From an uncultured Chloroflexia bacterium (GTDB lineage Bacteria; Chloroflexota; Anaerolineae; Anaerolineales; UBA4823), in contig CAVZSL010000006.1 of assembly GCA_963777935.1 (NCBI GenBank), positions 53,522 through 117,521 of the forward strand: 64,000 nucleotides of DNA. The letters are read 5' to 3'. Made by a program: the position numbers and the translations under genes. The notes beneath the pieces were generated by a model, which worked only from the letters and a program-made list of their open reading frames with translations, was not told the DNA's origin and did no database searches. Positions 9,553 through 19,230 of this stretch are shown piece after piece (within the stretch, counting starts at the first letter, position 1; every line of letters begins with the position of its first letter).

Positions 9553-9609
9553 TTGACAGAACATATTATTTGCGTATAATTAATTCGATAAACGTCTATT
9601 TAATTAGAT
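9553..9609 (+). promoter_or_regulatory. Consensus sigma-70 promoter with adjacent candidate ArsR operator repeats
   Basis: TTGACA (9553-9558), 16-nt spacer, TATAAT (9575-9580); then TAATTCGAT (9581-9589) and TAATTAGAT (9601-9609), 20 bp apart. Confidence 0.7.
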
Positions 9610-9628
9610 GTTATCAGGAATAGCTAAA

Positions 9629-10216
9629 ATGACAAACCAGATCCAACCAAATGATGAACAGCTGCTTACCTTCTTTAAGGCTTTAGCGGATGCCAACCGC
9701 TTGAAGATCGTTGGTCTGCTCTCCCAGCGTGAATACTCGGGGGAACAACTGGCCGCTCTGCTGAACCTACGACCGCCTACTATCTCCCATCACCTGAAGT
9801 TATTGTCAGAAGCAGGCCTGGTCAGCGCACGGGCTGAGAGCTATTACAATCTGTACCAGCTCGAACCAGGTGTTCTGGAGCAAATTGCCCGAGCCCTCGG
9901 CGAACAAGACAAACTACCCAGAATGGCAGCAGCAGTCGACCTGGAAGCATATGACCGGAAAGTCTTGTGGGACATCCTGCTGCCGGATGGCAGGTTGAAG
10001 GTCATACCAACCCAAAGGAAAAAACGCGAAGTCATACTCAAGCACATCCTCAAGGAATTTCAACCCGGGGTTCATTACACTGAGAAGCAAGTCAATGAAG
10101 TACTTTCTCGCTTCCATGAGGACACTGCCACACTACGCCGTGAGATGATTTCATATAAGTTTATGAAACGTGCCGAAGGAGAATATTGGAGAATTGATGG
10201 CGAAAAGCCATCCTAA
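9629..10216 (+). CDS. ArsR/SmtB-family HTH regulator with C-terminal DUF2087-like domain
   Basis: FFKALADANRLKIVGLL...PPTISHHLKLLSEAGLV wHTH; IPTQRKKR...YTEKQVNEVL...DTATLRREM C-terminal domain; start 9629 (track 9608). Confidence 0.85.
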   Translation: MTNQIQPNDEQLLTFFKALADANRLKIVGLLSQREYSGEQLAALLNLRPPTISHHLKLLSEAGLVSARAESYYNLYQLEPGVLEQIARALGEQDKLPRMAAAVDLEAYDRKVLWDILLPDGRLKVIPTQRKKREVILKHILKEFQPGVHYTEKQVNEVLSRFHEDTATLRREMISYKFMKRAEGEYWRIDGEKPS

Positions 10217-10228
10217 AGGAAAATAAAG

Positions 10229-10789
10229 ATGAACACAATAACAATGAAAGATGATGAATTATTGAATTTCATGAAGTCGCTGGCAGATGCCGAGCGATTG
10301 AAAATCGCCGGATTGTTGAGTTTGGAAGCCTTTTCACCCACTCAGCTCGCTGACCGGCTGGAAATGAAACCTGCCGAAGTGCAACGCCACCTGGATGAGC
10401 TCACAGCAGCCGGTCTGGCTCATAAGGAAGGCAGCTTATACCGGCTGGATAACCAGGCACTGGAAAAGCTCACTCGTCAGGTGCTGGCTCAATCTCGCCC
10501 GCCTGCGCCTGAATACGAAGGAGATGAATTTGAGGTCAAGACTTTACGGGCATACTTCTCACCTGACGGGACTTTGAAAGCCATCCCCACTCAGCATAAG
10601 AAGTTGTTGGTCGTCCTGAACCACCTGGTAAGGAATTTTGAACCAGGTATGAAATACCCGGAAAGCCAGGTCAATCAAATCTTGCGTCGTTTCAATGAAG
10701 ATACTGCCGCGTTACGCAGATACATGGTGGACAACAAGCTGCTGAGTCGTGAGAAAGGTATCTATTGGAGAACAGACCAGCCAAGCTGA
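10229..10789 (+). CDS. Second ArsR-like HTH + DUF2087-like protein (paralog of upstream gene)
   Basis: FMKSLADAERLKIAGLL; IPTQHKK...YPESQVNQIL...DTAALRRYMVD; co-linear with 9629-10216. Confidence 0.82.
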   Translation: MNTITMKDDELLNFMKSLADAERLKIAGLLSLEAFSPTQLADRLEMKPAEVQRHLDELTAAGLAHKEGSLYRLDNQALEKLTRQVLAQSRPPAPEYEGDEFEVKTLRAYFSPDGTLKAIPTQHKKLLVVLNHLVRNFEPGMKYPESQVNQILRRFNEDTAALRRYMVDNKLLSREKGIYWRTDQPS

Positions 10790-10866
10790 GAAATAGAGAT
10801 TTTCACATTTCCAGATACCGTACAGCCACTCAGGCTGTACGGTATTATTTTAAAGGGAAGAGATTG

Positions 10867-12400
10867 TCATTTTCCAGGAAGGCAGTCGTTTGGGATAAGC
10901 TGCACATCAAATGGAGATGTATAGCGAGAAAAATAGCTGTAAGGAGGTAACAAAGGCAGATCTGCCCCAAAATAATGGTCGAATACAAGGCGAAATTCAT
11001 TAACAGGAGCGAATTGTGATGATAGGGATTGATCATATCCCGGCAGGTAAAAAGCACTCAAATTTGCCATCCGCCCAGCGTTTGAGACAAGCCCCGGACC
11101 CGTATCACCCTGCAGAATAATAATGGGTTTCGGATCACTATCTTCGATAATATGTTGTAAGATTGGTAAAAGTTGGCTATTCGTAAAGTCCAGCTGGTCG
11201 CGATAGGCTTGAGTTGTATTGCTCAGAATCCATAGCTTCCGGGTAATTTATCGGGCTTCCATCGGCAGTAAAAACGAATGGCTCATGCGTTATAAGGATA
11301 TGAGCAAATACAAATTTCGGTCCAGAGATTTCTTGTGGGATAGTTCTCAACTTTTCGAAATCAAAAAGGATCTGCTCCCTCTTAGTATCCAGTGGCTGGC
11401 TGGTATCGGGGACGAGGAATGAGGGCAGTATTTTTGCGAAGTCGATCAGAGCCTGGCCAGCTGTGGATTTTAACAGCATCACCTCAAAGTTATTCATTCT
11501 CCCTAACTGGACTTGATTTCCACCTTTGGGAGATAGATAATGATCTGCATAATAGAATTCGGAGAAATGAAATCCGGTCTCAAAGGCTACCAATTTGTAG
11601 CCTAAAGATCGGAATGCTTGCATAACACCGTTATCTTTTATCAGTTGACGTAATACTGATGTTTCTTTAGTGGAGGGATCAAATTTACCCAATGCATCCA
11701 AATAATTCATATTAAGAATTGAAGTCAAAACCATTTCAGTTTGGCTATAGTTGGATTGGCTGCAATCGACCACTTGAAAGCCAAGCTGCTTTAATTCATT
11801 AATAAATGTGGAGTTATCATAATTATAAGCTTTATCTAACCAATCCTGACGGGCATACATATCCAGGACGATAAAATAAACATCCGGAGGAGATTGACCT
11901 TCAGTCAGGGCAAGATTTCCAATTCCATGGATGGCTACCACTGTATTTTCGCTATCCTTGCCTTGTTGGATTTCCCAGCTGGAGATTTGGTAAATGGGGA
12001 ACACAAGCGCGACCAAAGCAGCGACATTTATAGCCCTCGTTATTGGGAATGGATTTTTAACCCGCTTGGCAATCAGCCATAATCCAATCACTGCCAATGA
12101 CAGCCAGAGGGGAAGCAGCAGCCTATGCCGTCCAAGGGTCGGAATCGATTTTTCCAGGAAATTGTATACATGCCCGTAGGTGAAAAATAAAACCAGCACC
12201 AGGCTGGCTGCCAGAGCTCCGCGCTGCCAGTCTTTAAATATCAGGCGCATGGTTATTAACAAAAACCCAGCAAAGGTAAGCACTATCAGAACAGCGCGGA
12301 GTGCTTCTTGCGGAAAAAGCTGGGAGATGTTCAATCCCAGTAATGACAGGACAAAATATAAGGCTAAAAGGAATGGATGAAGCGGTGATTTGCCCAACAA
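10867..12400 (-). CDS. Membrane-anchored alkaline-phosphatase-superfamily (LtaS/EptA/sulfatase-like) protein, split by +1 frameshift near 11214
   Basis: About 5 N-terminal TMs, PPDVYFIVLD, SNYSQT, AHILITHEP. Removing one base continues into QAYRDQLDFTN...IILQGDTG and the 10867-11070 ORF, co-linear with the upstream paralog. Confidence 0.8.
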
Positions 12401-12404
12401 ACTT

Positions 12405-13959
12405 TTATCTTTCTATGGGTTGGCAATTATTCGGGATTTCCGTAAAGTCGAAATGCTTATCGTATCCAGAGTAGTAGCTCTTGTCTTCTAAAAGCGGAAG
12501 CTGTCCACCAAAATACTGATCAAATATCACACGAAAGGTATTAACCGGAGTAATGGTTGAATATAGCTGCTTGTCTCCGCCATTTGGAAGATAGTATGCG
12601 TTCAAGATAGCCAATCTATCCTTAGGTTCTGCTATGCCTTCACCGTGATCACCTTGCAGGATAATGATTGGTGGATTGGCAGATGTATTTAATATCTCGT
12701 CAACCACTGAAAGAATGCGTTTGTTCACATACCTGATCTGGTTGGCAAGCGCAGGTGCATACACATCGATTGGGGGATCAGCTTGCACTTCTTTAAATTC
12801 TCCATTTTCATCAAAAACAATCGGGGCGTGGGGTGAGACAATATGGGCATAGATGAATTTTGGGCTTTGTATTTCAAGAGGGAGGGTTTTAAGTTTATCT
12901 AAAGTATATAAAATCAATTCACGGTGTTCTTTATTGGGATAATCCATATCAACTTTAAAAACCCTGGATAAAATTGTCGCCGAGTCAGTTAATAAGACCA
13001 GAGCCGATTCTCGTATCAACATGGCTTCAAACAGGTTGACTGGTAACATGGTCTCACCCAGATTTAAGGCACTGTTACTTGGTGCAAAATAAAAATCCGA
13101 ATCCGGGATCCGTAACCAATAATATGAGTTTTCGAAAGTCACAAATGAATATCCCAAGTTTTCCAACTGCTGACGAACGGCACTATACTTAAGAAGTTGG
13201 ATAAGGCCACTGGTATCGTTATTTGAGCTTGTAAATTCATCACTCAAAGCATCCAAATAATTGTAGTTTAAGGCAGAAGCCATGGAGAGGGATGTCTGGC
13301 TATAATTACTTTGGCTGCAATCAGCAACATAAAAACCCCTTTGTTTCAATTCATCTAAAAATGGGGAATTATCAAAACTAATTACCTGCTCAAGAAAATC
13401 CGCTCGTGGATAGCCATCTAAGATTATGTAATAAATATCAGGGGGCGCTTGATCGGTTGAAATTCGCAGGCCATTAGTGTTTCCTTCTGCCAGGATTGGA
13501 TATTGCCTGTGGATAGAAGCACGTATTCCTTGAGAAGTAATCTGAAACGCAGGAAAAACTAAGGCGACGATAGCTAGTATGTTCAGAAAACGATTAATCG
13601 GTATGGGATTCTCAAGTTTTTTAAGCACTAACCAGGTGAACAATATGCCTAGAAATATCCATACTGGAAGCATCAGACGATGTCTTCCTACAATCACACC
13701 TATGATCGAAAAAGATTTAAACAGGTGATAAATATGCCCATAGGTAAAAAAGAATAATAGATATAGAGACGTGAGGACAGCTGCCCTGCCCCAATCACGA
13801 ACCAATAACTTTAGTAAGAACCATAGCAAACCTGTAAGGAGCAAGGATACCAGTAAAGCACGATATGCTGCAGATGGTTTAACCTGAGTTATATTCAGCC
13901 CAAGCAGATGCAATCACAAAATAAGCCGAGAATAAAAACGGATGGAAAGGTTTTTTCAT
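12405..13959 (-). CDS. Membrane-anchored alkaline-phosphatase-superfamily (LtaS/EptA/sulfatase-like) protein, apparent +1 frameshift near 13914
   Basis: PPDIYYIILDG, SNYSQT, AHIVSPHAP and IILQGDHG metal/nucleophile motifs. ATG 13959 gives MKKPFHPFLFSAYFV, matching the paralog's PLHPFLLALYFV, then shifts frame into LHLLGLNITQ. Confidence 0.8.
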
Positions 13960-14014
13960 CCTGATACCACTGAGGACAATTGGGTTGTATCAATCATCCA
14001 CAATTTACATACGG

Positions 14015-15409
14015 CTACTTGCGTTCCAGCAAATATAAAACTCGAGGAGAATCATGGATAGATATTTTTTCTTTGACGTCGAAATAAATACCAAAGGCAG
14101 CTTCGAAGCCTTCCTGGTGGTAGTCCGAGAAAATATCTTGCCGGCTCGCCAATAGCTTTTGTACCTGTGAATCTTCCTTTGGAACCCACTCAATCACCAG
14201 CCATTTCCCCAGGCTTTGGAAGTAATCCGCCAGGAGTGAGAGTGGAACATTATTGGAAATTGCCAGGTGATGGATGAGCGCCAGTGCAAGAAGTGCATCT
14301 GCAGGAGCGCGCTCGAGCAGGGAATGGCGTTCCTGGTTGTGCCAGCCTAATGATGGCGTTGGATTGGTAAAGTCCATAACCAGGGGTAGCATCAGGTTCT
14401 CCTGATTCTTTTTTACCAGCAGGTAATTTTGTTCCACCGCAGCAGGATCGATATCAAAAGCGATTGTGTAACTGCCCATCCCGGCTGCCAACCGGCTGAA
14501 CTCACCTGTATTTCCTCCCAAATCCCAGGTGGTATGGGGGTGAATGCGTTCCAGGAATTTTAAGACAACCTGTTTTTTATGTTCAAAGGCAGATGTAGCG
14601 TAATGTCCGGACGAGGCAATGTAATAATCACCCCACTCCGTGCCAGAAGGTTTCCAGCTTAGCTTGCGGGTAGTGGTTTCCAGGCTGTCCATCAATCCCA
14701 TGAACTGCAGCTTGCTTATTTTTCGTTTGGGTTGTTCCTTCGCAATCGGTTTATCAGCATATCGCTTTTGCGCAGCAGCGTGCATGTGGATATGCGCTGC
14801 CAGACCCAAACCATAACGCGTTTTTCTGGGGAGCAGGCTTGCAGCCAAATCCAAAGGAATCCCATCAATATACACCCGTAATAACTGGCTGAGACGAATA
14901 TCTCTATGAGAAATTAATGCCAGGGGAGCAAGGAAGTGCTGGCAAAATTGTCGGTAGGCAACCCATGGCTCACCCTCACGATATATCTCAAAGGAAAGGG
15001 TATCGATCAAAATTGGCTTGCCATGGTGAAATTGGATGTTGTACGCGCTGGCATCTTTTAACACCATACCTGATTCGAGGGCAAGCGTCTGGATAATTAA
15101 GGTCGCCAGGGCGGCATCCTTCAGCTGGCTGAAGCTCCATTCATAGGGATACGAAATGAAATTCAAGCGTTCTGGTTTTATGATCTTGTACGCCAGGGGT
15201 GATTCTTCAGGCTCGATACTCACTTCCTCATGAGGAATTAGCAGCTCTGAATCGACCAATCTGGTATACAGCTTTGAGCTCATCAAACGATCGTAATTTT
15301 CGGAATAGATTTTGTTAATCTGGCGATAAAGTATCCCATCCCGGGAGAAAAGGAAACCGCTTGGGTCCCGGAAGGATGCCCCCAGTCGCCGGTCACTGCT
15401 GGACATCAT
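14015..15409 (-). CDS. NoeA-like protein: N-terminal kinase-like region plus C-terminal class I SAM-dependent methyltransferase
   Basis: SFRDPSG N-terminal motif typical of NoeA-like proteins; LKDASAYNIQF...ILIDTLSF resembles a kinase catalytic loop; WDLGGNTG...AFDIDP SAM motifs. Confidence 0.8.
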   Translation of the reverse strand: MMSSSDRRLGASFRDPSGFLFSRDGILYRQINKIYSENYDRLMSSKLYTRLVDSELLIPHEEVSIEPEESPLAYKIIKPERLNFISYPYEWSFSQLKDAALATLIIQTLALESGMVLKDASAYNIQFHHGKPILIDTLSFEIYREGEPWVAYRQFCQHFLAPLALISHRDIRLSQLLRVYIDGIPLDLAASLLPRKTRYGLGLAAHIHMHAAAQKRYADKPIAKEQPKRKISKLQFMGLMDSLETTTRKLSWKPSGTEWGDYYIASSGHYATSAFEHKKQVVLKFLERIHPHTTWDLGGNTGEFSRLAAGMGSYTIAFDIDPAAVEQNYLLVKKNQENLMLPLVMDFTNPTPSLGWHNQERHSLLERAPADALLALALIHHLAISNNVPLSLLADYFQSLGKWLVIEWVPKEDSQVQKLLASRQDIFSDYHQEGFEAAFGIYFDVKEKISIHDSPRVLYLLERK

Positions 15410-15599
15410 TATCTTCTTCTTTTTGCTTTTCTGATCGGTTGAACAAACCTTTGATCTTCTTCCAGTATGCTTTAATCAGGAAACCTGCACCCACGAGACC
15501 AGCAATCAATAACTGGATCAGAAAGCTACCGGACCCGGGGTCGAGATAGGCATGAGGACGCAAGATTGGGGTTAAAAGGATGAACCACTGAAAATGCAT
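15393..15599 (-). CDS. Small single-pass membrane protein with AYLDPGSGS motif
   Basis: 68 aa: HAYLDPGSGS, hydrophobic helix, basic WKKIK, acidic tail; stop overlaps the start region of the NoeA-like gene; GGAAGG upstream; TATAAT on minus strand at 15635-15640. Confidence 0.8.
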   Translation of the reverse strand: MHFQWFILLTPILRPHAYLDPGSGSFLIQLLIAGLVGAGFLIKAYWKKIKGLFNRSEKQKEEDNDVQQ

Positions 15600-15692
15600 T
15601 TTTTTACCTTCCTAAAATACCTAAACTTTGTGCGATTATACTACCGGTTTATCGCCCGATGTGCTTGACCATTCATAAGTCATGGGCTTAAA

Positions 15693-17153
15693 TCAGAATT
15701 CTAATCGAGTTTGTTGGGATGTATTCAAACTTTTCACCCAACTCACGACCGGTGTACGCCAGTCGACCCCTGTGTATGTTCCATTGAGGTCATAACGACG
15801 GACATCAAAATTGTTTTCCCCTTCATAAAGGGAATCCGGGACGAGCACATGGTAGCTCGTAAACGGCTCCAACGGGGTGCCATCAGAAAGAATATACTTC
15901 CCTTCCATCTCACTCAATCCACCAACCGAAGGATGGCGCTTATCCAATATCTCAAGGATTTGAGCACCTGTCAACTGAATATCCACCAGCACATTATCTG
16001 TGGGCAGCATACTCAGAATAGAGGCCTCTGATACATCACCTGCTGGCATTGATTGCACGTATCGCGGGCTGAAGAGGGCAATCTTTGCGGAAGGATATGC
16101 CTCCAACCAGGGGATGGTGAGAAGTTTTACCATCTCCAGTGTTCCGGCATCGATTTTCTTCCCAACAGTTCCGATGACATGCCAAAGGTCTGGATCTGCA
16201 CGATGATGCCAGGATTGCACAAGCTTGCCAATCGTTGAATCTCCGCTGCCATTGGGGTTATCAAGCAAACGAGCATCAATATCCACCAACCTGTTCAAAC
16301 CTGTATCAAAAAGCGTGGCTATGTGAACAGATTTATGCAGGAACGAGCCACTCTCCACAATTGTTGCTTCTCCATCCTGCTCGACGATCTCTTCGTGGCA
16401 ATGCCCAGCGCACAGAATCTGAATACCCAGCTCATAAGCAATCGATGCTAATGAGCGCATCTCACCAGAACACAGGTGTCCCAGGAGGAACATCACTTGC
16501 GCCCCATCGGCTTTCGCTTTTGGTACCACATCGCGAAGGGTAGCTTTATAGGGTAGAAAATCAAACTCAGCAACGTTGGCTGGTTTGGTATCTACCGGTG
16601 TATCCAATGTGGTCAGACCTATCAACCCAACCTTGAGCCCATTAATTTCCTGGATCACATATGGGCGCAAGAAATCTGGTGTTTTGCCAGTCGCTTTCTC
16701 TCGTATATTGGCACTCAGGAATGGGAATTTCGCCTGTGCTGCACGCTGCCGCAATACTTCCACCCCAAAATCAAAATCGTGATTACCGATCGCTGCAGCA
16801 GCATAGCCCATGGCATTCATCACATCGATCATCGATTCACCCTTGAACCAGGTGGAGAGTGCCGGTCCCGTCCACATATCACCTCCACTCAAGACGAGGA
16901 AGGGTCCATCCCGGGTATAGTCAGCCTGGCGACGCCACTGGTGTAGCATACCTGCCGCCCCGCCATACTGCTCGGTGGGCTCCATCCAGCCATGCTCGTC
17001 GTTGGTGTATAGTATGGTCAGGCTGCGTAGCGTATCTGTCTGTCGTTCAGAAAAGTCAGCCAAATCAGGAGTGCAGGCTGCCAGGGCAATACCTGCTCCA
17101 TATAAGACGGAGATTTGAAGGAATTCCCGCCGGTTGAGATGATTATGCTTCAT
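15693..17153 (-). CDS. Tat-exported lipoprotein, bifunctional metallophosphatase/5'-nucleotidase family
   Basis: NRREFL Tat motif and LAAC lipobox; NDEHG, GGD, GNHDFD, GH and GHCH calcineurin-like motifs; 5'-NT C-terminal-like domain. Confidence 0.88.
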   Translation of the reverse strand: MKHNHLNRREFLQISVLYGAGIALAACTPDLADFSERQTDTLRSLTILYTNDEHGWMEPTEQYGGAAGMLHQWRRQADYTRDGPFLVLSGGDMWTGPALSTWFKGESMIDVMNAMGYAAAAIGNHDFDFGVEVLRQRAAQAKFPFLSANIREKATGKTPDFLRPYVIQEINGLKVGLIGLTTLDTPVDTKPANVAEFDFLPYKATLRDVVPKAKADGAQVMFLLGHLCSGEMRSLASIAYELGIQILCAGHCHEEIVEQDGEATIVESGSFLHKSVHIATLFDTGLNRLVDIDARLLDNPNGSGDSTIGKLVQSWHHRADPDLWHVIGTVGKKIDAGTLEMVKLLTIPWLEAYPSAKIALFSPRYVQSMPAGDVSEASILSMLPTDNVLVDIQLTGAQILEILDKRHPSVGGLSEMEGKYILSDGTPLEPFTSYHVLVPDSLYEGENNFDVRRYDLNGTYTGVDWRTPVVSWVKSLNTSQQTRLEF

Positions 17154-17166
17154 GAATTGTCATTCA

Positions 17167-17856
17167 TTATGAGGCACCATACGATTTTTCAGGCATTGCT
17201 AAACGGACCAGGAAGGCACCTTGAATTGCACCGACCACCAGTCCGGTCAACAACAGCACACCTGCTATAAACAGGACTACCCAACCCATTCCACTCAGCT
17301 TTTGGGTAACATCGATACCCCAAAAGATTATCGGCATACCGACCATCCAGGCAAGCATGTTGGCAGGCATCCACAAAGAGGCACGGCTGACCTTTTTGCG
17401 CATCGTGAGCCATTGGGCGAAGGATAAAACTGCCCCACCAACAACTCCGAGCCCTGCCGCCAATATCAGGACCATCCATTGCGCCGGCTCGGCAACAGGT
17501 ACCTGGTTTTGGGTTGACTGCTTTCCCAGGCTCATCAGGGTGGAGGGTAAATAACCCATCACATAAGCAACCAGTGCCCCTACGAGGGTAGCCAACCACC
17601 AGGCAGTTCGTTGAATCATGGGGAACCAGGGATGCATCGCCCACCATTGTGCCAGCCCAACGATGGTTGCCTCAAGGACACCACTGGCAACCGCCACCAG
17701 AAAAGCGATCAGGATGGATACCACATTTTGCTGATCACCCAGGCTGGATATGACAGTAGCCCCGACCGCAAAGGTCAGCCCCAGGCCGAACATCTCCCCA
17801 ATGCCGTTCGCCCCGACCCAACGCAGCCACAGTTTGCGCTTATCTTTTGAATTCAC
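17167..17856 (-). CDS. Hypothetical multi-pass membrane protein
   Basis: About 6 hydrophobic helices with internally repeated W..AN / G.AQW motifs; GTG start overlapping the upstream stop. Confidence 0.7.
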   Translation of the reverse strand: MNSKDKRKLWLRWVGANGIGEMFGLGLTFAVGATVISSLGDQQNVVSILIAFLVAVASGVLEATIVGLAQWWAMHPWFPMIQRTAWWLATLVGALVAYVMGYLPSTLMSLGKQSTQNQVPVAEPAQWMVLILAAGLGVVGGAVLSFAQWLTMRKKVSRASLWMPANMLAWMVGMPIIFWGIDVTQKLSGMGWVVLFIAGVLLLTGLVVGAIQGAFLVRLAMPEKSYGAS

Positions 17857-19077
17857 CTCACCGGCCTTCTTCGTAATTCAAAGGTTTCTTGCCCGTTCAG
17901 GAACCGTTCAAGGGGAAAAACTTCCAGCGACATGACGCGACTGTTAGCAAAGTAGGCGAAATCGAATCCCGTCGGGTCTCCTGCCTTTTTACCTGGGATG
18001 GGCATCAAGCGGGCAGTCAGTGGTTTGGCCAGCCGTAGAGATAAACACGCCAGGTCCAGCAACACCGCTGAGAGCTGTTCCACACTGGTGTCTCCGGGCA
18101 GCGGGATGGTGTCCAACCCGGTGCCGCACACTGCAGAATAGAGCAGCAAGTCTTTGACTCCCAGGGTGCCCTCAGCCACACGCTGTGCCAGGGTGGCGTC
18201 TTCGAGAACCGGCATGAATAAGCCACAGAAGCCTGCCCTTAGAAACTCAGCCTGGTCCATCGTGTCTGCCAGGATGGCAGCTGCGGCAAGCGTGCCATGC
18301 CCACCGACCAAGGGTACTCCCAAGCGCTCAAAAGCTGTTCCGATGGAGCGATTCCATGGATGGGAAGGGTGCCAGCGAAAAGTCGATCCCGCCAAACTTC
18401 ACCCCCGTTTGCTTCTCCACCTGGCGGGCAACACCTGTCAGGTTATGGGCATTTTCCTCCATCGCAGTAACCAGGTACTTGCGGGCTTGCTCCAGGCTGG
18501 TTGCCTGGCTGAAGGCATCCAAGGCCAGGTCGGCAGCTTCGGTTGCCAGGGCAAAAGTCTGCTCCCCACCCCTGTGGTAGGCAGCCGGGAAAAATGGCGA
18601 GCCTGCCGGTACATTGCCCAATGCAGCGAAGCGCAGGTTGGCGAAGCCATCCGATGAGATCACGGATGCCTGTTTTATGACCTCAGCACATTGCTGGATG
18701 GCTGAAAGAGAAACCTTGCCATCCTGGGTGGTCATCAGTCCGGAGAAAAAGGCATTCTGAGTAGCTGCTAAGGCTACGGGGATGGAGGTATAGCTCTCGA
18801 GCTGTGATGGCAAGGCGGGTCCCAATGAAATATATTCATATCCAAGCTCTGCTGCGGCTACCTCCAGCTCCTGAGCCAGTTTTGCAAGCTCCCCTAGTTT
18901 TTGATCAGGTAATAGATTGGTGAATGGCACCGTCGCCAAACGAGCCGATTGCACCTCGTAGCCAGCCTCGATAAAAGCAGGTTCGGCTATGCGCAGGAAT
19001 TCCCCGGCAGCTCTAAGTACCTTACCATCTAACGGATAGGCTGGATCAAGAAAGCAGGTGATGGAACGGATTTTCAT
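17853..19077 (-). CDS. DUF711 (PFL-like) family protein, split by +1 frameshift near 18351
   Basis: MKIRSIT, NLRFAALGNV..GSPFFPAAYH, GIDFSLAPFP, then GFCGLFMPVLED and SAVCGTGLDTIPLPGD in the next frame. Confidence 0.85.
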
Positions 19078-19230
19078 GGGGCGAATTCTATCAGGCTTGA
19101 CAGGGTTGGGCAAGGCGCGGAAATTCGCTACAGGCGCGCCTCAAGAGCTGGTGGGAAATTAACCAGGAAAAGTCTATATTTTCTAGAAGACTATGACAAA
19201 CCACCTGCTTTTTAAGTGCAGGAGTGAGAT

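Follow-up and report, generated by a model that had tools for sequence, protein, structure and literature searches.

A noeA/noeB-type gene set with a small membrane peptide in a Chloroflexota (Anaerolineales-like) genome, and its probable role in decorating cell-surface sugars

Introduction

In a 64,000-nucleotide stretch of Chloroflexota DNA (hereafter, the window), a small gene, a kinase-like/methyltransferase fusion gene and two genes for predicted membrane enzymes follow one another closely on the minus strand, which raises the question of what such a unit makes and where its product goes. A first-pass annotation had proposed an uncharacterised pathway that forms a methylated phospho-group and transfers it to a surface glycan, with the small peptide as carrier or cofactor. 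Here, we examine the four products, their distribution across genomes and the readings that the combined evidence allows.

Results

Layout of the locus

The listed open reading frames confirm the minus-strand unit (Table 1), including the overlap, here 17 nt, between the end of the peptide gene and the start of the fusion gene. Upstream of the peptide gene is a 93-nt gap in which direct reading places a TATAAT hexamer, and a possible ribosome-binding site, AGGAAGG, comes just ahead of the ATG; the promoter assignment is weak, because a consensus promoter scan listed no full two-hexamer promoter upstream of this gene. The G+C content of the NoeB-like stretch is 0.41-0.44, as against 0.47-0.52. 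The genome carries the fusion and the peptide motif once each and six NoeB-like genes, three of which are housed in an rmlABCD/GT2/PMT_2 glycan cluster. The unit lies far beyond chance.

Table 1. Features of the minus-strand unit, in window coordinates
Feature	Position	Strand	Size or content	Basis
Membrane peptide gene	15393..15599	-	68 aa, AYLDPGSGS	ORF listing
NoeA-type fusion gene	14015-15409	-	464 aa	ORF listing
NoeB-like membrane enzyme 1 gene	12405..13959	-	listed ORF 12405-13913, 502 aa	
NoeB-like membrane enzyme 2 gene	10867..12400	-	pieces 11177-12400 (407 aa) and 10867-11070 (67 aa)	
Kinase-like N-terminal domain of fusion	14660..15409	-	residues 1-250	
Class I SAM-dependent methyltransferase domain of fusion	14018..14644	-	residues 256-464	
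TATAAT hexamer, possible promoter	15635..15640	-		read directly from sequence

Going beyond the earlier description of the locus, we observed one-base frame breaks in both NoeB-like genes. An extra base at about 11212-11213 cuts the enzyme 2 gene in two, and the frame of enzyme 1 breaks near 13907-13909, severing the conserved N-terminal MKKPFHPF... start at ATG 13959, which is why the listed ORF begins only at TTG 13913. Contigs of runs X1 and X2 have one base fewer at 11212 or 11213, and those of other public runs one base fewer at 13907 or 13909; once the extra base is omitted, open frames of 527 aa (enzyme 1) and 514 aa (enzyme 2) result. Since these newly noticed breaks are absent from other sequencing runs, they are probably assembly errors.

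The kinase-methyltransferase fusion

In the 464-aa protein, which belongs to the NoeA family, an atypical, RIO-like domain of protein-kinase fold is fused to a class I SAM methyltransferase; at E<=1e-30, the family comprises 1889 clusters (50% identity). The KDASAYN loop occupies residues 118-124 and is followed by I135-D136, as had been noted; R29, D119, N124 and D136 are invariant in all 38 fusion homologues, which come from many phyla. Spaced as D-x4-N-x11-D, D119, N124 and D136 would form the catalytic and metal-binding triad, with R29 as a putative ligand of the ATP phosphates. The accessible text of PMC9758233 agrees, assigning the family a protein-kinase-like fold, reporting the same residues, and describing an Arg where the catalytic Lys would be expected and an ion-pair Glu that is not identifiable.

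Profile comparison by hhalign against the RIO1 alignment gave Prob 84% and P 7.7e-6, over 31 columns only (residues 108-138); the controls gave P values of 0.44 (reversed), 0.076 (unrelated profile) and 5.9e-10 (RIO-versus-APH positive), and comparisons of the domain with APH (P 0.013) and Kdo (P 0.63) alignments were not significant. Sub-threshold Pfam RIO1 matches fell on the catalytic and metal-loop stretch in 3 of the 38 members. No Pfam kinase family reached its cut-off for the fusion (RIO1 came closest, at 13.2 bits vs a cut-off of 22), and the kinase-like domain alone found no match in a profile search of PDB sequences. In fold searches with the full model (pLDDT 93.8), the matches were taken up by the methyltransferase domain; the order of secondary-structure elements in the N-terminal half fits a small kinase fold. 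The likeness to RIO kinases (PF01163) is confined to the catalytic and metal loops (LKDASAYNIQF..GKPILID in the fusion, HGDLSAYNILY..G..IIDFP in RIO), whereas beyond these loops the domain does not align, and the RIO-type N-terminal part is missing. On the triad, the invariant Arg and the RIO match, the kinase-like reading of the first-pass annotation held.

Its SAM domain was likewise borne out, in the C-terminal half, both by Foldseek, which identifies a class I methyltransferase fold, and by VIA alignment of model residues 256-464, with ChlM (Z 18.6, rmsd 2.4, 175 aligned), MePCE (Z 18.0), BCDIN3D (Z 16.8) and the WbdD methyltransferase domain (Z 16.6) among the matches. Against PDB sequences, the fusion profile matched Trm5b at E 0.0076 and four WbdD sequences at E 0.01-0.018. 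The resemblance to WbdD is weak and non-discriminating, its fold match not standing out from those of other methyltransferases, and the methyl-phosphate product that had been proposed by analogy with WbdD is not supported.

The NoeB-like membrane enzymes

The downstream pair are NoeB-like membrane enzymes with EptA/PbgA architecture and a Thr nucleophile. The two pieces of enzyme 2 share 43% and 53% identity with the N- and C-parts of enzyme 1, respectively, and the two are paralogues. Each is predicted to combine an N-terminal transmembrane domain with an outward-facing domain of the alkaline-phosphatase superfamily. For the enzyme 1 model (pLDDT 88.5), the best Foldseek matches were full-length MCR-1, EptC and EptA, and VIA returned YejM/PbgA (Z 21.8), EptC (21.4) and full-length PbgA (21.2, 349 residues aligned), with sulfatases nearly as high (Z 19.4-20.7). 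Sulfatase was the sole Pfam family above cut-off (E 5.6e-9), and sulfatases also came first when the family profile was searched against PDB sequences (E 1.3e-5). The C/S-x-P-x-R signature, for its part, occurs at the nucleophile position in none of 45 family members, where that column holds Thr in 42 and Ser in 3, in line with the earlier statement that these are not formylglycine sulfatases. In enzyme 1, SNYSQT occupies residues 202-207, and D166, T207, H357, H362 and D422 are candidate active-site residues; the four other than T207, candidate metal or active-site ligands, are invariant or nearly so in the family, while the order and spacing of motifs suggest T207 as the counterpart of the Ept catalytic Thr.

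The small membrane peptide

The 68-aa peptide is a near-obligatory, translationally coupled partner of the fusion. Of 80 loci across many phyla, 76 have it ahead of the fusion gene (76 of the 77 with upstream room), a linkage that is new here, and the distance is within 200 nt in 73 of the 76; of 444 scored candidates, 443 qualified as homologues at E<=0.001. A short N-terminus leads into YLDPGSGS (residues 18-25), one transmembrane helix, the basic stretch YWKKIK and an acidic tail. Among other positions, Y18-S25, Q29 and Y45-K50 are invariant in all 16 aligned sequences, and the strict form Y[LI]DP[GA][ST]GS is present in 71 of 76 loci. The tail past the helix carries a net charge of +2.3 to +3.7, and the predicted topology is N-out/C-in, with the motif outside the membrane. 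Outside Chloroflexota, 32 of 39 loci have a signal-peptidase-like site ahead of the Tyr; SignalP, as quoted in the accessible text of PMC9758233, classed five Legionella homologues as 'NO_SP' (Sec/SPI probability 0.08-0.36), and the signal-peptide reading is uncertain. In one natural fusion, P0393, a TagF-like CDP-glycerol glycerophosphotransferase, which faces the cytoplasm, begins with the motif-helix module, a use that fits a membrane anchor better than a carrier. The topology, the pre-Tyr site outside Chloroflexota and the anchor on a TagF-like enzyme are new readings of this peptide.

Distribution across genomes

Co-occurrence of the three families across genomes was checked and found. 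In 121 Chloroflexota genomes, the NoeB-like family was present in 10 of 10 with the kinase domain and in 2 of 111 without it, both exceptions being degenerate (an internal stop; a 97-aa fragment), although related genomes are not independent and the co-occurrence in this phylum draw amounts to three taxonomic families. Among 26 relatives, the NoeB-like family was present in 8, every one of which had the kinase domain, and in none of the 14 lacking this domain. Overall, 17 of 21 fusion-bearing genomes have NoeB-like genes vs 2 of 125 that lack the fusion, so that these genes are almost never found without it, while the other four of the 21 do without them; this asymmetry is a new observation. 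The four, with no NoeB-like match at E<=1e-15, are G002 (97% complete), G003 (61%), G016 (100%) and G021 (92%).

Of the 67 loci with room downstream, 27 have a NoeB-like gene directly after the fusion; counting any position in the locus, the figure is 41 of 80, and the other 39 have none within 7 kb. Taken with the four genomes, this indicates that fusion and peptide can work without the family, or with partners that have diverged too far. In L005 and L051, the closest relatives outside the genus, peptide and fusion are followed directly by ArsR-DUF2087 genes. Of 95 neighbouring proteins scanned at loci elsewhere, 7 matched Sulfatase, 4 NeuB, 4 Capsule_synth, and 3 each CTP_transf_3, Wzy_C, GT87, PMT_2 and GT2.

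Discussion

We favour, at a probability of roughly 0.6, a NoeA/NoeB-type module in this Anaerolineales-like bacterium, in which a membrane-held fusion modifies a substrate and NoeB-like enzymes on the outer face depend on the product; the module probably decorates cell-surface sugars. The soluble fusion would be held at the cytoplasmic face of the membrane by the peptide, whose N-terminus and YLDPGSGS motif would lie outside, with a single helix across the membrane and the basic tail inside. There, the fusion would phosphorylate and methylate a membrane-bound substrate, either a lipid or a lipid-linked glycan. Its product may serve the outer-face enzymes as donor, or may be a modified glycan that they process further, and through them envelope glycans would gain a phospho-substituent. 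The presence of one fusion copy beside one to eight NoeB-like matches per genome fits a single supply enzyme that feeds several transferases differing in acceptor specificity.

The peptide could instead be a DltX-like covalent carrier. The Tyr or Ser of its YLDPGSGS motif would then receive a phospho- or methyl-phospho group, for the NoeB-like enzymes to pass to an extracellular glycan. Conservation of the motif across phyla, its predicted position at the outer face, where the catalytic domain of the NoeB-like enzymes is also expected, and a cleavage site that would free the Tyr as N-terminus all speak for such a relay. ATP and SAM as cofactors, however, place a kinase-methyltransferase in the cytoplasm; the fusion, which needs both and has no signal peptide, should therefore sit across the membrane from the motif. 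The P0393 enzyme and the genomes that keep the peptide-fusion pair without NoeB-like genes also argue against it, and we know of no phosphorylated intermediate of the peptide. The carrier role once proposed thus seems improbable to us. Somewhat less improbable, though still unlikely, is that the fusion and peptide act independently of the membrane enzymes and were merely gathered with them in glycan-biosynthesis islands, the fusion capping a cytoplasmic lipid-linked polymer like WbdD and the enzymes drawing on phospholipid donors like EptA and LtaS. The many loci and the four genomes lacking the family, the ArsR-DUF2087 neighbours, the lower G+C of the NoeB-like stretch and the weak similarity of the methyltransferase domain to WbdD are consistent with this, but mere co-location does not predict the one-sided dependence of NoeB-like genes on the fusion, nor does it sit well with a three-gene order common to Chloroflexota and S. 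meliloti.

Two further possibilities concern the enzymes themselves. Were the membrane proteins sulfatase- or phosphodiesterase-type hydrolases, or non-catalytic sensors like PbgA/YejM, the Pfam assignment, the sulfatases heading the profile search and the YejM/PbgA periplasmic domain as best VIA match would be readily understood; yet the missing sulfatase signature with Thr in its place, candidate active-site residues conserved beyond the needs of a pure sensor, and a multi-helix N-terminal domain that aligns with full-length PbgA and MCR-1 make this highly improbable, although the sequences are compatible with a Thr-type hydrolase. A fusion whose N-terminal domain were a pseudokinase or served to bind substrate, leaving the methyltransferase as the one catalytic part, would agree with the Arg-for-Lys replacement, the missing Glu, the sub-threshold Pfam score and the non-significant APH and Kdo comparisons. 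Pseudokinases usually lose the catalytic D, the N and the metal-binding D, whose equivalents are invariant here at canonical spacing in many phyla, and we give this view little credence.

Comparison with known systems

Like the peptide, DltX is a very small single-helix membrane protein with an invariant short Tyr motif and a link to envelope-modification enzymes; the motif is N-terminal in the peptide, unlike in DltX, and the partner enzymes belong to different families. EptA, EptC, MCR-1 and PbgA/YejM share with the NoeB-like enzymes an N-terminal multi-helix membrane domain and an outward catalytic domain (Z 20-21.8), full-length PbgA and MCR-1 aligning with enzyme 1 from the membrane domain on, and a Thr at the nucleophile position, but identity is only 10-17%. 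Genomic dependence on a NoeA-type fusion is a feature of the NoeB-like family that Ept enzymes, to our knowledge, do not have.

WbdD of E. coli O9a (PDB 4azs, 4ax8, 4uw0), a bifunctional kinase/methyltransferase that caps O-antigen with methyl-phosphate, also joins kinase-fold and class I methyltransferase domains in one polypeptide in a glycan-tailoring context, but its domain order is the reverse of that of the fusion (kinase, then methyltransferase), which has no coiled-coil. We know of no peptide or NoeB-like partner of WbdD. The accessible portion of PMC9758233 names none either, and regards the two families as remotely related at best.

That work (Krysinska et al. 2022) describes the kinase-methyltransferase family with two conserved neighbours, centred on Legionella anisa Lani_1193/Lani_1194/Lani_1195, where a kinase-like/methyltransferase fusion likewise has Arg for the catalytic Lys, with counterparts to PKA D166, N171 and D184; the link of Lani_1194 to our locus runs through NoeA, called its homologue there. 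In 816 neighbourhoods, a small hypothetical protein was counted in 65% and an alkaline-phosphatase-fold protein resembling EptA in 38%, compared with the peptide and NoeB-like frequencies given above. Unlike here, the families are treated as possible effectors and the small one, in the text available, is a 'hypothetical protein' with no motif or topology.

The closest counterpart lies in S. meliloti. The fusion is a full-length match to NoeA (E 3e-78, with 36% identity across 464 columns), the peptide matches the pSymA 71-aa ORF before noeA (46% identity, E 4e-14), and family profile A3 matches NoeB (hhalign Prob 98.1%, E 7.9e-14, 380 columns), pairwise similarity to NoeB being remote (E 0.004). 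The source study for the nod-box n5 operon is reportedly that of Ardourel et al. 1995. On pSymA, this operon comprises nodL, the 71-aa ORF, noeA and noeB, and the citing literature, in its accessible parts, treats NoeA and NoeB as host-range proteins with a 'hypothesized' Nod-factor modification only (PMC9758233, PMC10945364, PMC9048898). The peptide, noeA and noeB families share order and orientation with our locus, the S. meliloti peptide reads HAYLDPGTGS, and its NoeB carries the same Thr-containing motif. Unlike that operon, the Chloroflexota locus has neither the nodL acetyltransferase nor a nod box, holds two tandem NoeB-like paralogues instead of one NoeB, and belongs to a host without symbiosis context, in which the target cannot be a Nod factor. 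The label 'uncharacterised pathway' thus holds for the chemistry only: the Chloroflexota unit is a copy of the widespread noeA/noeB set with its small ORF, described in 2022, and not a new system.

Organization of the gene unit

Four co-directional minus-strand genes, read from the ORF list and spanning positions 15599 to 10867, encode a small membrane protein with a YLDPGSGS motif (the peptide), a kinase-like/SAM-methyltransferase protein homologous to NoeA (the fusion) and two tandem paralogous membrane enzymes of the EptA/PbgA fold, here called NoeB-like. A search of NCBIfam found no family for any of the four proteins, and the fusion also scores below the cut-off of every Pfam family. In the 93-nt gap upstream of the unit, the hexamer TATAAT and a possible ribosome-binding site, AGGAAGG, can be read from the sequence; a consensus scan for promoters and terminators found about as many sites as expected from shuffled sequence (15 versus 13.0, and 10 versus 6.4) and was set aside. 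The UshA-like protein encoded on the far side of this gap has a twin-arginine-like, lipoprotein-like N-terminus (RREFLQ...LAAC).

Features of the unit and its surroundings (window positions)
Feature	Length	Coordinates	Strand	Remark
ArsR-type HTH + DUF2087 regulator		9608-10216	plus	tandem paralogue of the next; converges on the unit
ArsR-type HTH + DUF2087 regulator		10229-10789	plus	converges on the unit
Second NoeB-like gene, C-terminal piece	67 aa	10867-11070	minus
Second NoeB-like gene, N-terminal piece	407 aa	11177-12400	minus	begins 4 nt after the first NoeB-like gene
First NoeB-like ORF	listed as 502 aa	12405-13913	minus	55-nt gap after the fusion
Fusion ORF	464 aa	14015-15409	minus	start overlapped 17 nt by the peptide ORF
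Peptide ORF	68 aa	15393-15599	minus	from the ORF list
UshA-like 5'-nucleotidase/metallophosphoesterase		15693-17153	minus	directly upstream of the unit
DUF711 gene, first ORF		17853-18395	minus	Pfam positions 268-406 of 413
DUF711 gene, second ORF		18328-19113	minus	Pfam positions 7-272 of 413; overlaps the first ORF

The ArsR-DUF2087 pair also directly follows the fusion gene in two relatives (loci L005 and L051), where NoeB-like genes are missing at the corresponding site; in two genomes of the same genus as the window's (G005 and G015), the NoeB-like pair lies directly 3' of the fusion gene. Across positions 10001-14000, which take in both NoeB-like genes, G+C is 0.41-0.44, compared with 0.47-0.52 in the flanks, and the pair in the window looks like a lineage-specific insertion.

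Apparent frame breaks in the NoeB-like genes

As assembled, neither NoeB-like gene is continuous. The 407-aa piece of the second matches the N-terminal part of the first protein (43% identity over 372 residues) and the 67-aa piece its C-terminal part (53% over 66 residues), so the two represent a single gene with a frameshift. In the first gene, the consensus start of the family (MKK....HP.LF) is found as MKKPFHPF, from an ATG at 13959, out of frame with the remainder. When contigs from four public sequencing runs were compared with the window over 10800-14100, one base fewer was found at 11212 (run X1, depth 3.7) or 11213 (X2, depth 11.8), and again at 13907 (X1, depth 4.5) or 13909 (X4, depth 2.9), depths below 5 being weak singly, two runs concurring at each site, and X1 possibly being the sample of origin and so not fully independent. 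Both sites coincide exactly with the two break points, and open frames of 514 aa (second) and 527 aa (first) result without the extra base, compared with 411 and 502 aa as assembled. The breaks are probably consensus or assembly errors, and we treat both genes as intact; for users of the window, the practical point is that its two apparent NoeB-like pseudogenes are most likely artefacts.

Further split genes occur in this assembly, namely pheT on another contig (C7) and DUF711 in the window. The latter is one 418-aa gene in L005, and its split is likely another indel error of the assembly.

Domain composition of the fusion

A word-index search with the fusion returned at least 8000 proteins, and an exhaustive search 6234 clusters (50% identity) at E<=0.001, 1889 of them at E<=1e-30; the best 150 of these clusters are nearly all full length, and the nearest named homologues among the matches listed belong to Anaerolineales. 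The first-pass annotation had read the protein as a kinase-like domain joined to a SAM methyltransferase, and the comparisons support both assignments, the former as a prediction from conserved residues and a loop match. Over residues 1-250, mean column identity is 62% (38 sequences, many phyla), and the residues invariant in 38/38 include S12, D15, P16, G18, R29, D119, N124 and D136. R29 puts an Arg at the position of PKA K72, D119, N124 and D136 are the equivalents of D166, N171 and D184, and counterparts of all four are kept in NoeA (pairwise alignment); the D-x4-N-x11-D spacing is that of the protein-kinase catalytic and metal loops.

Residues 108-138 aligned by hhalign with 28 RIO1 proteins from Chloroflexota genomes (Prob 84%, P 7.7e-6), pairing LKDASAYNIQF..GKPILID with HGDLSAYNILY..G..IIDFP, compared with P 0.44 for the reversed alignment, 0.076 for an unrelated profile and 5.9e-10 for RIO versus APH as a positive control. 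The same domain gave no significant match to an APH alignment (26 sequences, P 0.013) or a Kdo-kinase alignment (four sequences, P 0.63). Pfam RIO1 appears below its cut-off on the same stretch in 3/38 members. Membership of the RIO kinase family itself (PF01163, gathering cut-off 22 bits) was rejected, the window protein giving no match and the best of 37 homologues 13.2 bits, and phmmer and profile searches of PDB sequences with the N-terminal domain returned nothing at E<=10.

An AlphaFold model of the fusion, built from 48 diverse members, reached pLDDT 93.8. All matches listed by Foldseek and VIA for this whole-protein model are methyltransferases on residues 256-464, and because these filled the lists, the kinase-like domain was invisible to whole-model fold searches; the order of its secondary-structure elements in the model is compatible with a protein-kinase-like fold. 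An ESM Atlas search with the N-terminal domain returned unnamed clusters only, of 234-263 aa, which resemble the kinase-like domain alone, so stand-alone forms without a methyltransferase may exist. For the family of Legionella anisa Lani_1194, the sections on these proteins in Krysinska et al. (2022, PMC9758233) put homologues without the methyltransferase domain at 6%.

Residues 256-464 form a class I SAM methyltransferase domain (VIA Z 16-18.6, Foldseek agreeing), in which a DLGGNTG motif can be read. The VIA matches include ChlM (Z 18.6), MePCE (18.0), BCDIN3D (16.8) and WbdD (16.6), tied within about 2 Z units, and Trm5b (E 0.0076) and four WbdD entries (E 0.01-0.018) came up when PDB sequences were searched with a profile of the fusion. 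The presence of three phosphate-O-methyltransferases among these matches is suggestive, but the matches do not discriminate between them and the others, and the methyl-phosphate product that had been proposed from the sequence thus finds no support here.

The NoeB-like membrane enzymes

The Pfam Sulfatase family matches the first membrane protein at E 5.6e-9, and the question is whether the pair are sulfatases or, as had been claimed, transferases. Formylglycine sulfatases (PF00884 sensu stricto) were rejected, since C/S-x-P-x-R is absent at the nucleophile position in 45/45 family members; it occurs elsewhere in three of the 45 sequences, as chance matches. The candidate nucleophile column, which follows an NY motif 41 residues past the first acidic metal ligand D166, holds Thr in 42/45 and Ser in 3/45, and D166, N203, Y204, T207, S210, H357, H362 and D422 are invariant or nearly so.

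In the model of the first enzyme (pLDDT 88.5), a cut-off first helix and four long helices before residue 136 precede an alkaline-phosphatase-type domain. Full-length MCR-1, EptC and EptA lead the Foldseek matches (E 6e-8 to 2e-7) ahead of sulfatases, and VIA gives YejM/PbgA (Z 21.8, rmsd 3.2, 266 aligned), EptC (21.4), sulfatases (19.4-20.7) and MCR-1 (20.3), with full-length PbgA at Z 21.2 over 349 aligned residues from model residue 12. Transferases and sulfatases are not separable by fold alone; it is the motif together with the membrane domain that separates them, and on these grounds the assignment as transferases rather than true sulfatases is supported.

Linkage and co-occurrence

One genome per species was scanned, yielding at least 592 confirmed fusion relatives among at least 600 matched stretches, and 80 loci from many phyla were kept. 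The peptide is encoded in 76/80, the misses being three loci with the fusion at a contig edge and one (L033) that truly lacks it. It lies at most 200 nt upstream of the fusion gene, or overlaps it, in 73/76; the exceptions are L012 and L031, where a NoeB-like gene intervenes, and L057, with a 412-nt gap. Where 1.8 kb or more is available downstream of the fusion gene (67 loci), 27 have a co-directional NoeB-like gene immediately next to it; counted anywhere in the locus, a NoeB-like gene is found in 41/80. Among 95 other neighbour proteins (of 189 candidates), Pfam recognized seven Sulfatase, four NeuB and four Capsule_synth proteins and three each of CTP_transf_3, Wzy_C, GT87, PMT_2 and GT2, families that point to a surface-glycan context.

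In one Chloroflexota group (L002, L003, L008, L021, L029 and L040), the peptide-fusion pair is flanked by topA on one side and on the other by a gene for a conserved membrane protein of about 335 aa, followed by greA. This protein, which has no Pfam family, was considered as part of the module and set aside as unrelated (hhalign P 0.08-0.66); its position downstream of the fusion is probably lineage synteny.

The window's own genome has one fusion, one copy of the peptide motif and six NoeB-like genes. Three of the further paralogues lie inside a surface-polysaccharide cluster (L090; contig C5, 452000-470000) with rmlA/B/C/D-type genes, four GT2, a UDP-GlcNAc 2-epimerase, a PMT_2/GT87-like GT-C and an MptE-like protein. 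The sixth (L091; contig C7, 21000-34000), 48% identical to the first enzyme of the unit, adjoins a phosphate-type ABC importer (PBP_like_2, permease, ATPase) and neighbours the pheT that is split into two ORFs.

Among 121 Chloroflexota genomes, the kinase domain was found in 10 and NoeB-like genes in 12, all 10 kinase-positive genomes having both; in the two with NoeB-like sequences alone, one gene has an internal stop and the other is a 97-aa fragment. Among 26 relatives, the kinase domain was found in 12 and NoeB-like genes in eight, all eight with the kinase domain. In four genomes (G002, G003, G016 and G021), no NoeB-like match at E<=1e-15 accompanies the kinase domain; diverged partners could escape this threshold. 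Within the genus, the distribution is patchy (fusion in 7/15 genomes, NoeB-like genes in 5/15). When the two sets are combined and the window's genome is taken only once, NoeB-like genes occur in 17/21 genomes with the fusion versus 2/125 without, counts in which kin are not independent and the phylum draw contains three positive taxonomic families. The expected co-occurrence of the families across genomes is therefore borne out, for the peptide at the level of loci and for the NoeB-like enzymes at that of genomes. What is chiefly new here is the one-sidedness of this pattern. The transferases apparently depend on the fusion, while the fusion seems able to do without them, and this asymmetry predicts that the fusion supplies something that they require.

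The peptide

The search returned 443 homologues similar in length to the peptide, and residues invariant in 16/16 include Y18-L-D-P-G-S-G-S25, Q29 and Y45-W-K-K-I-K50, among others. The motif is followed by a hydrophobic stretch (about 16/20 residues) and then by a tail whose net charge is +2.3 in loci from Chloroflexota and +3.7 elsewhere; given this basic tail, the positive-inside rule predicts that the N-terminus lies outside and the C-terminus inside. A signal-peptidase-I-like site before the Tyr, defined as an uncharged run of at least 9 residues with small residues at -1 and -3, is present in 32/39 loci from other phyla versus 1/30 Chloroflexota-labelled loci (69/76 peptides evaluated, seven being left out because a looser motif pattern was unmatched or the upstream sequence was shorter than 17 residues; taxon labels hand-assigned on the basis of record titles). 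The window's peptide has a short N-terminus. For five Legionella homologues, the available parts of Krysinska et al. (2022, PMC9758233) give the SignalP result 'NO_SP' (Sec/SPI 0.08-0.36), two of them with cleavage placed at 18-19, and signal-peptide cleavage is thus uncertain.

Among longer proteins, a search for the peptide module found four. P0393 (415 aa, Pfam Glyphos_transf, named CDP-glycerol glycerophosphotransferase family protein) has it in its first ~50 residues, as a signal-like stretch, HAYLDPGSGA, a helix and a basic stretch, with a TagF-like domain after it. Judged from its sequence, P0393 shows the module in nature as the predicted membrane anchor at the N-terminus of an enzyme that faces the cytoplasm, in one cluster at E 4.2e-4. 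P0391 (232 aa) starts in the same way and continues with a segment rich in Cys and another membrane stretch. None of six longer fusion forms checked (481-593 aa) has a fused peptide. An ESM Atlas search with the peptide gave unnamed peptide clusters only, and among the papers listed its motif strings occur in no relevant sense.

A model for the module

In the model that we favour, with a probability of about 0.6, the peptide would anchor the cytoplasmic kinase-methyltransferase at the membrane, the kinase-methyltransferase would make or mark a membrane-bound substrate, and outward-facing NoeB-like transferases would depend on that substrate. Our confidence in the identities of the components is high, and the supply-and-transfer logic that connects them is put forward more tentatively.

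A different role for the peptide, that of a carrier, had been suggested in the first-pass annotation. Taken further, YLDPGSGS would be the working end of a trans-membrane relay, in which the peptide couples the fusion to the outward-facing NoeB-like enzymes, either as a covalent phospho-group carrier, in the way that DltX carries D-alanine, or as a subunit that passes a freshly made lipid-bound donor on to them; the motif is predicted to lie just outside the membrane, with a free N-terminus after signal-peptidase cleavage in most phyla. The carrier role finds no support here, the module being read as an N-terminal membrane anchor in P0393, and we consider the relay improbable; if true, it would amount to a new kind of envelope-decoration pathway, with new donor chemistry, extending from Chloroflexota to rhizobia.

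The peptide should be regarded as a predicted subunit of the kinase-methyltransferase, and the NoeB-like enzymes as predicted dependants of the fusion's product. The window's copy brings nothing categorically new, and the comparative results sharpen the experimental questions for a very widespread module (at least 1889 fusion clusters at 50% identity; 80 loci from many phyla). Genetic work by Ardourel in 1995 reportedly found that the module affects host range in a model symbiosis.

Relation to NoeA/NoeB and the Legionella proteins

A tblastn search of plasmids with the fusion gave 65 records, 57 of them from Sinorhizobium, and the matched regions are annotated noeA. The pSymA genes run nodL, 71-aa hypothetical ORF, noeA, noeB. 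The fusion is 36% identical to pSymA NoeA over residues 8-463 (E 3e-78; tblastn, BLASTP), the peptide is 46% identical to the 71-aa ORF (E 4e-14), and the NoeB-like family profile matches NoeB by hhalign (Prob 98.1%, E 7.9e-14, 380 columns), pairwise comparison giving only E 0.004. The earlier description of the unit as an uncharacterised pathway therefore needs amending: observation and inference were sensible, but the system is of a known kind, represented by NoeA/NoeB and by the proteins treated in the 2022 paper. As far as the accessible literature goes, NoeA and NoeB are described elsewhere just as host-range proteins of unknown chemistry, and our search on noeA and noeB, including a listing of NoeA papers from 2023 on, found no biochemistry in the entries that it covered; a search for Lani_1194 led to the 2022 paper alone.

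In its parts on these proteins, that paper (Krysinska et al. 2022, PMC9758233) names NoeA and NoeB as homologues of the Legionella family and describes in Lani_1194 relatives a protein-kinase-like domain with Arg for the catalytic Lys and no ion-pair Glu; of about 2000 homologues, 94% have a methyltransferase fused to this domain. Relatives of Lani_1193 occur in 65% of 816 neighbourhoods and those of Lani_1195 in 38%, and an HHpred comparison links Lani_1195 to EptA (E 3.2e-27); what kind of protein the small Lani_1193 is, section 8 and the supplements do not say. WbdD-type chain terminators are arranged as methyltransferase, kinase and coiled-coil, whereas the fusion has the kinase-like domain first, then the methyltransferase, and nothing beyond residue 464. 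The kinase-then-methyltransferase order is also given for the Lani_1194 family in the text and Figure 6D legend of the same paper, and the window shares with the Lani_1194/NoeA family both a small-protein gene upstream and an alkaline-phosphatase-fold gene nearby.
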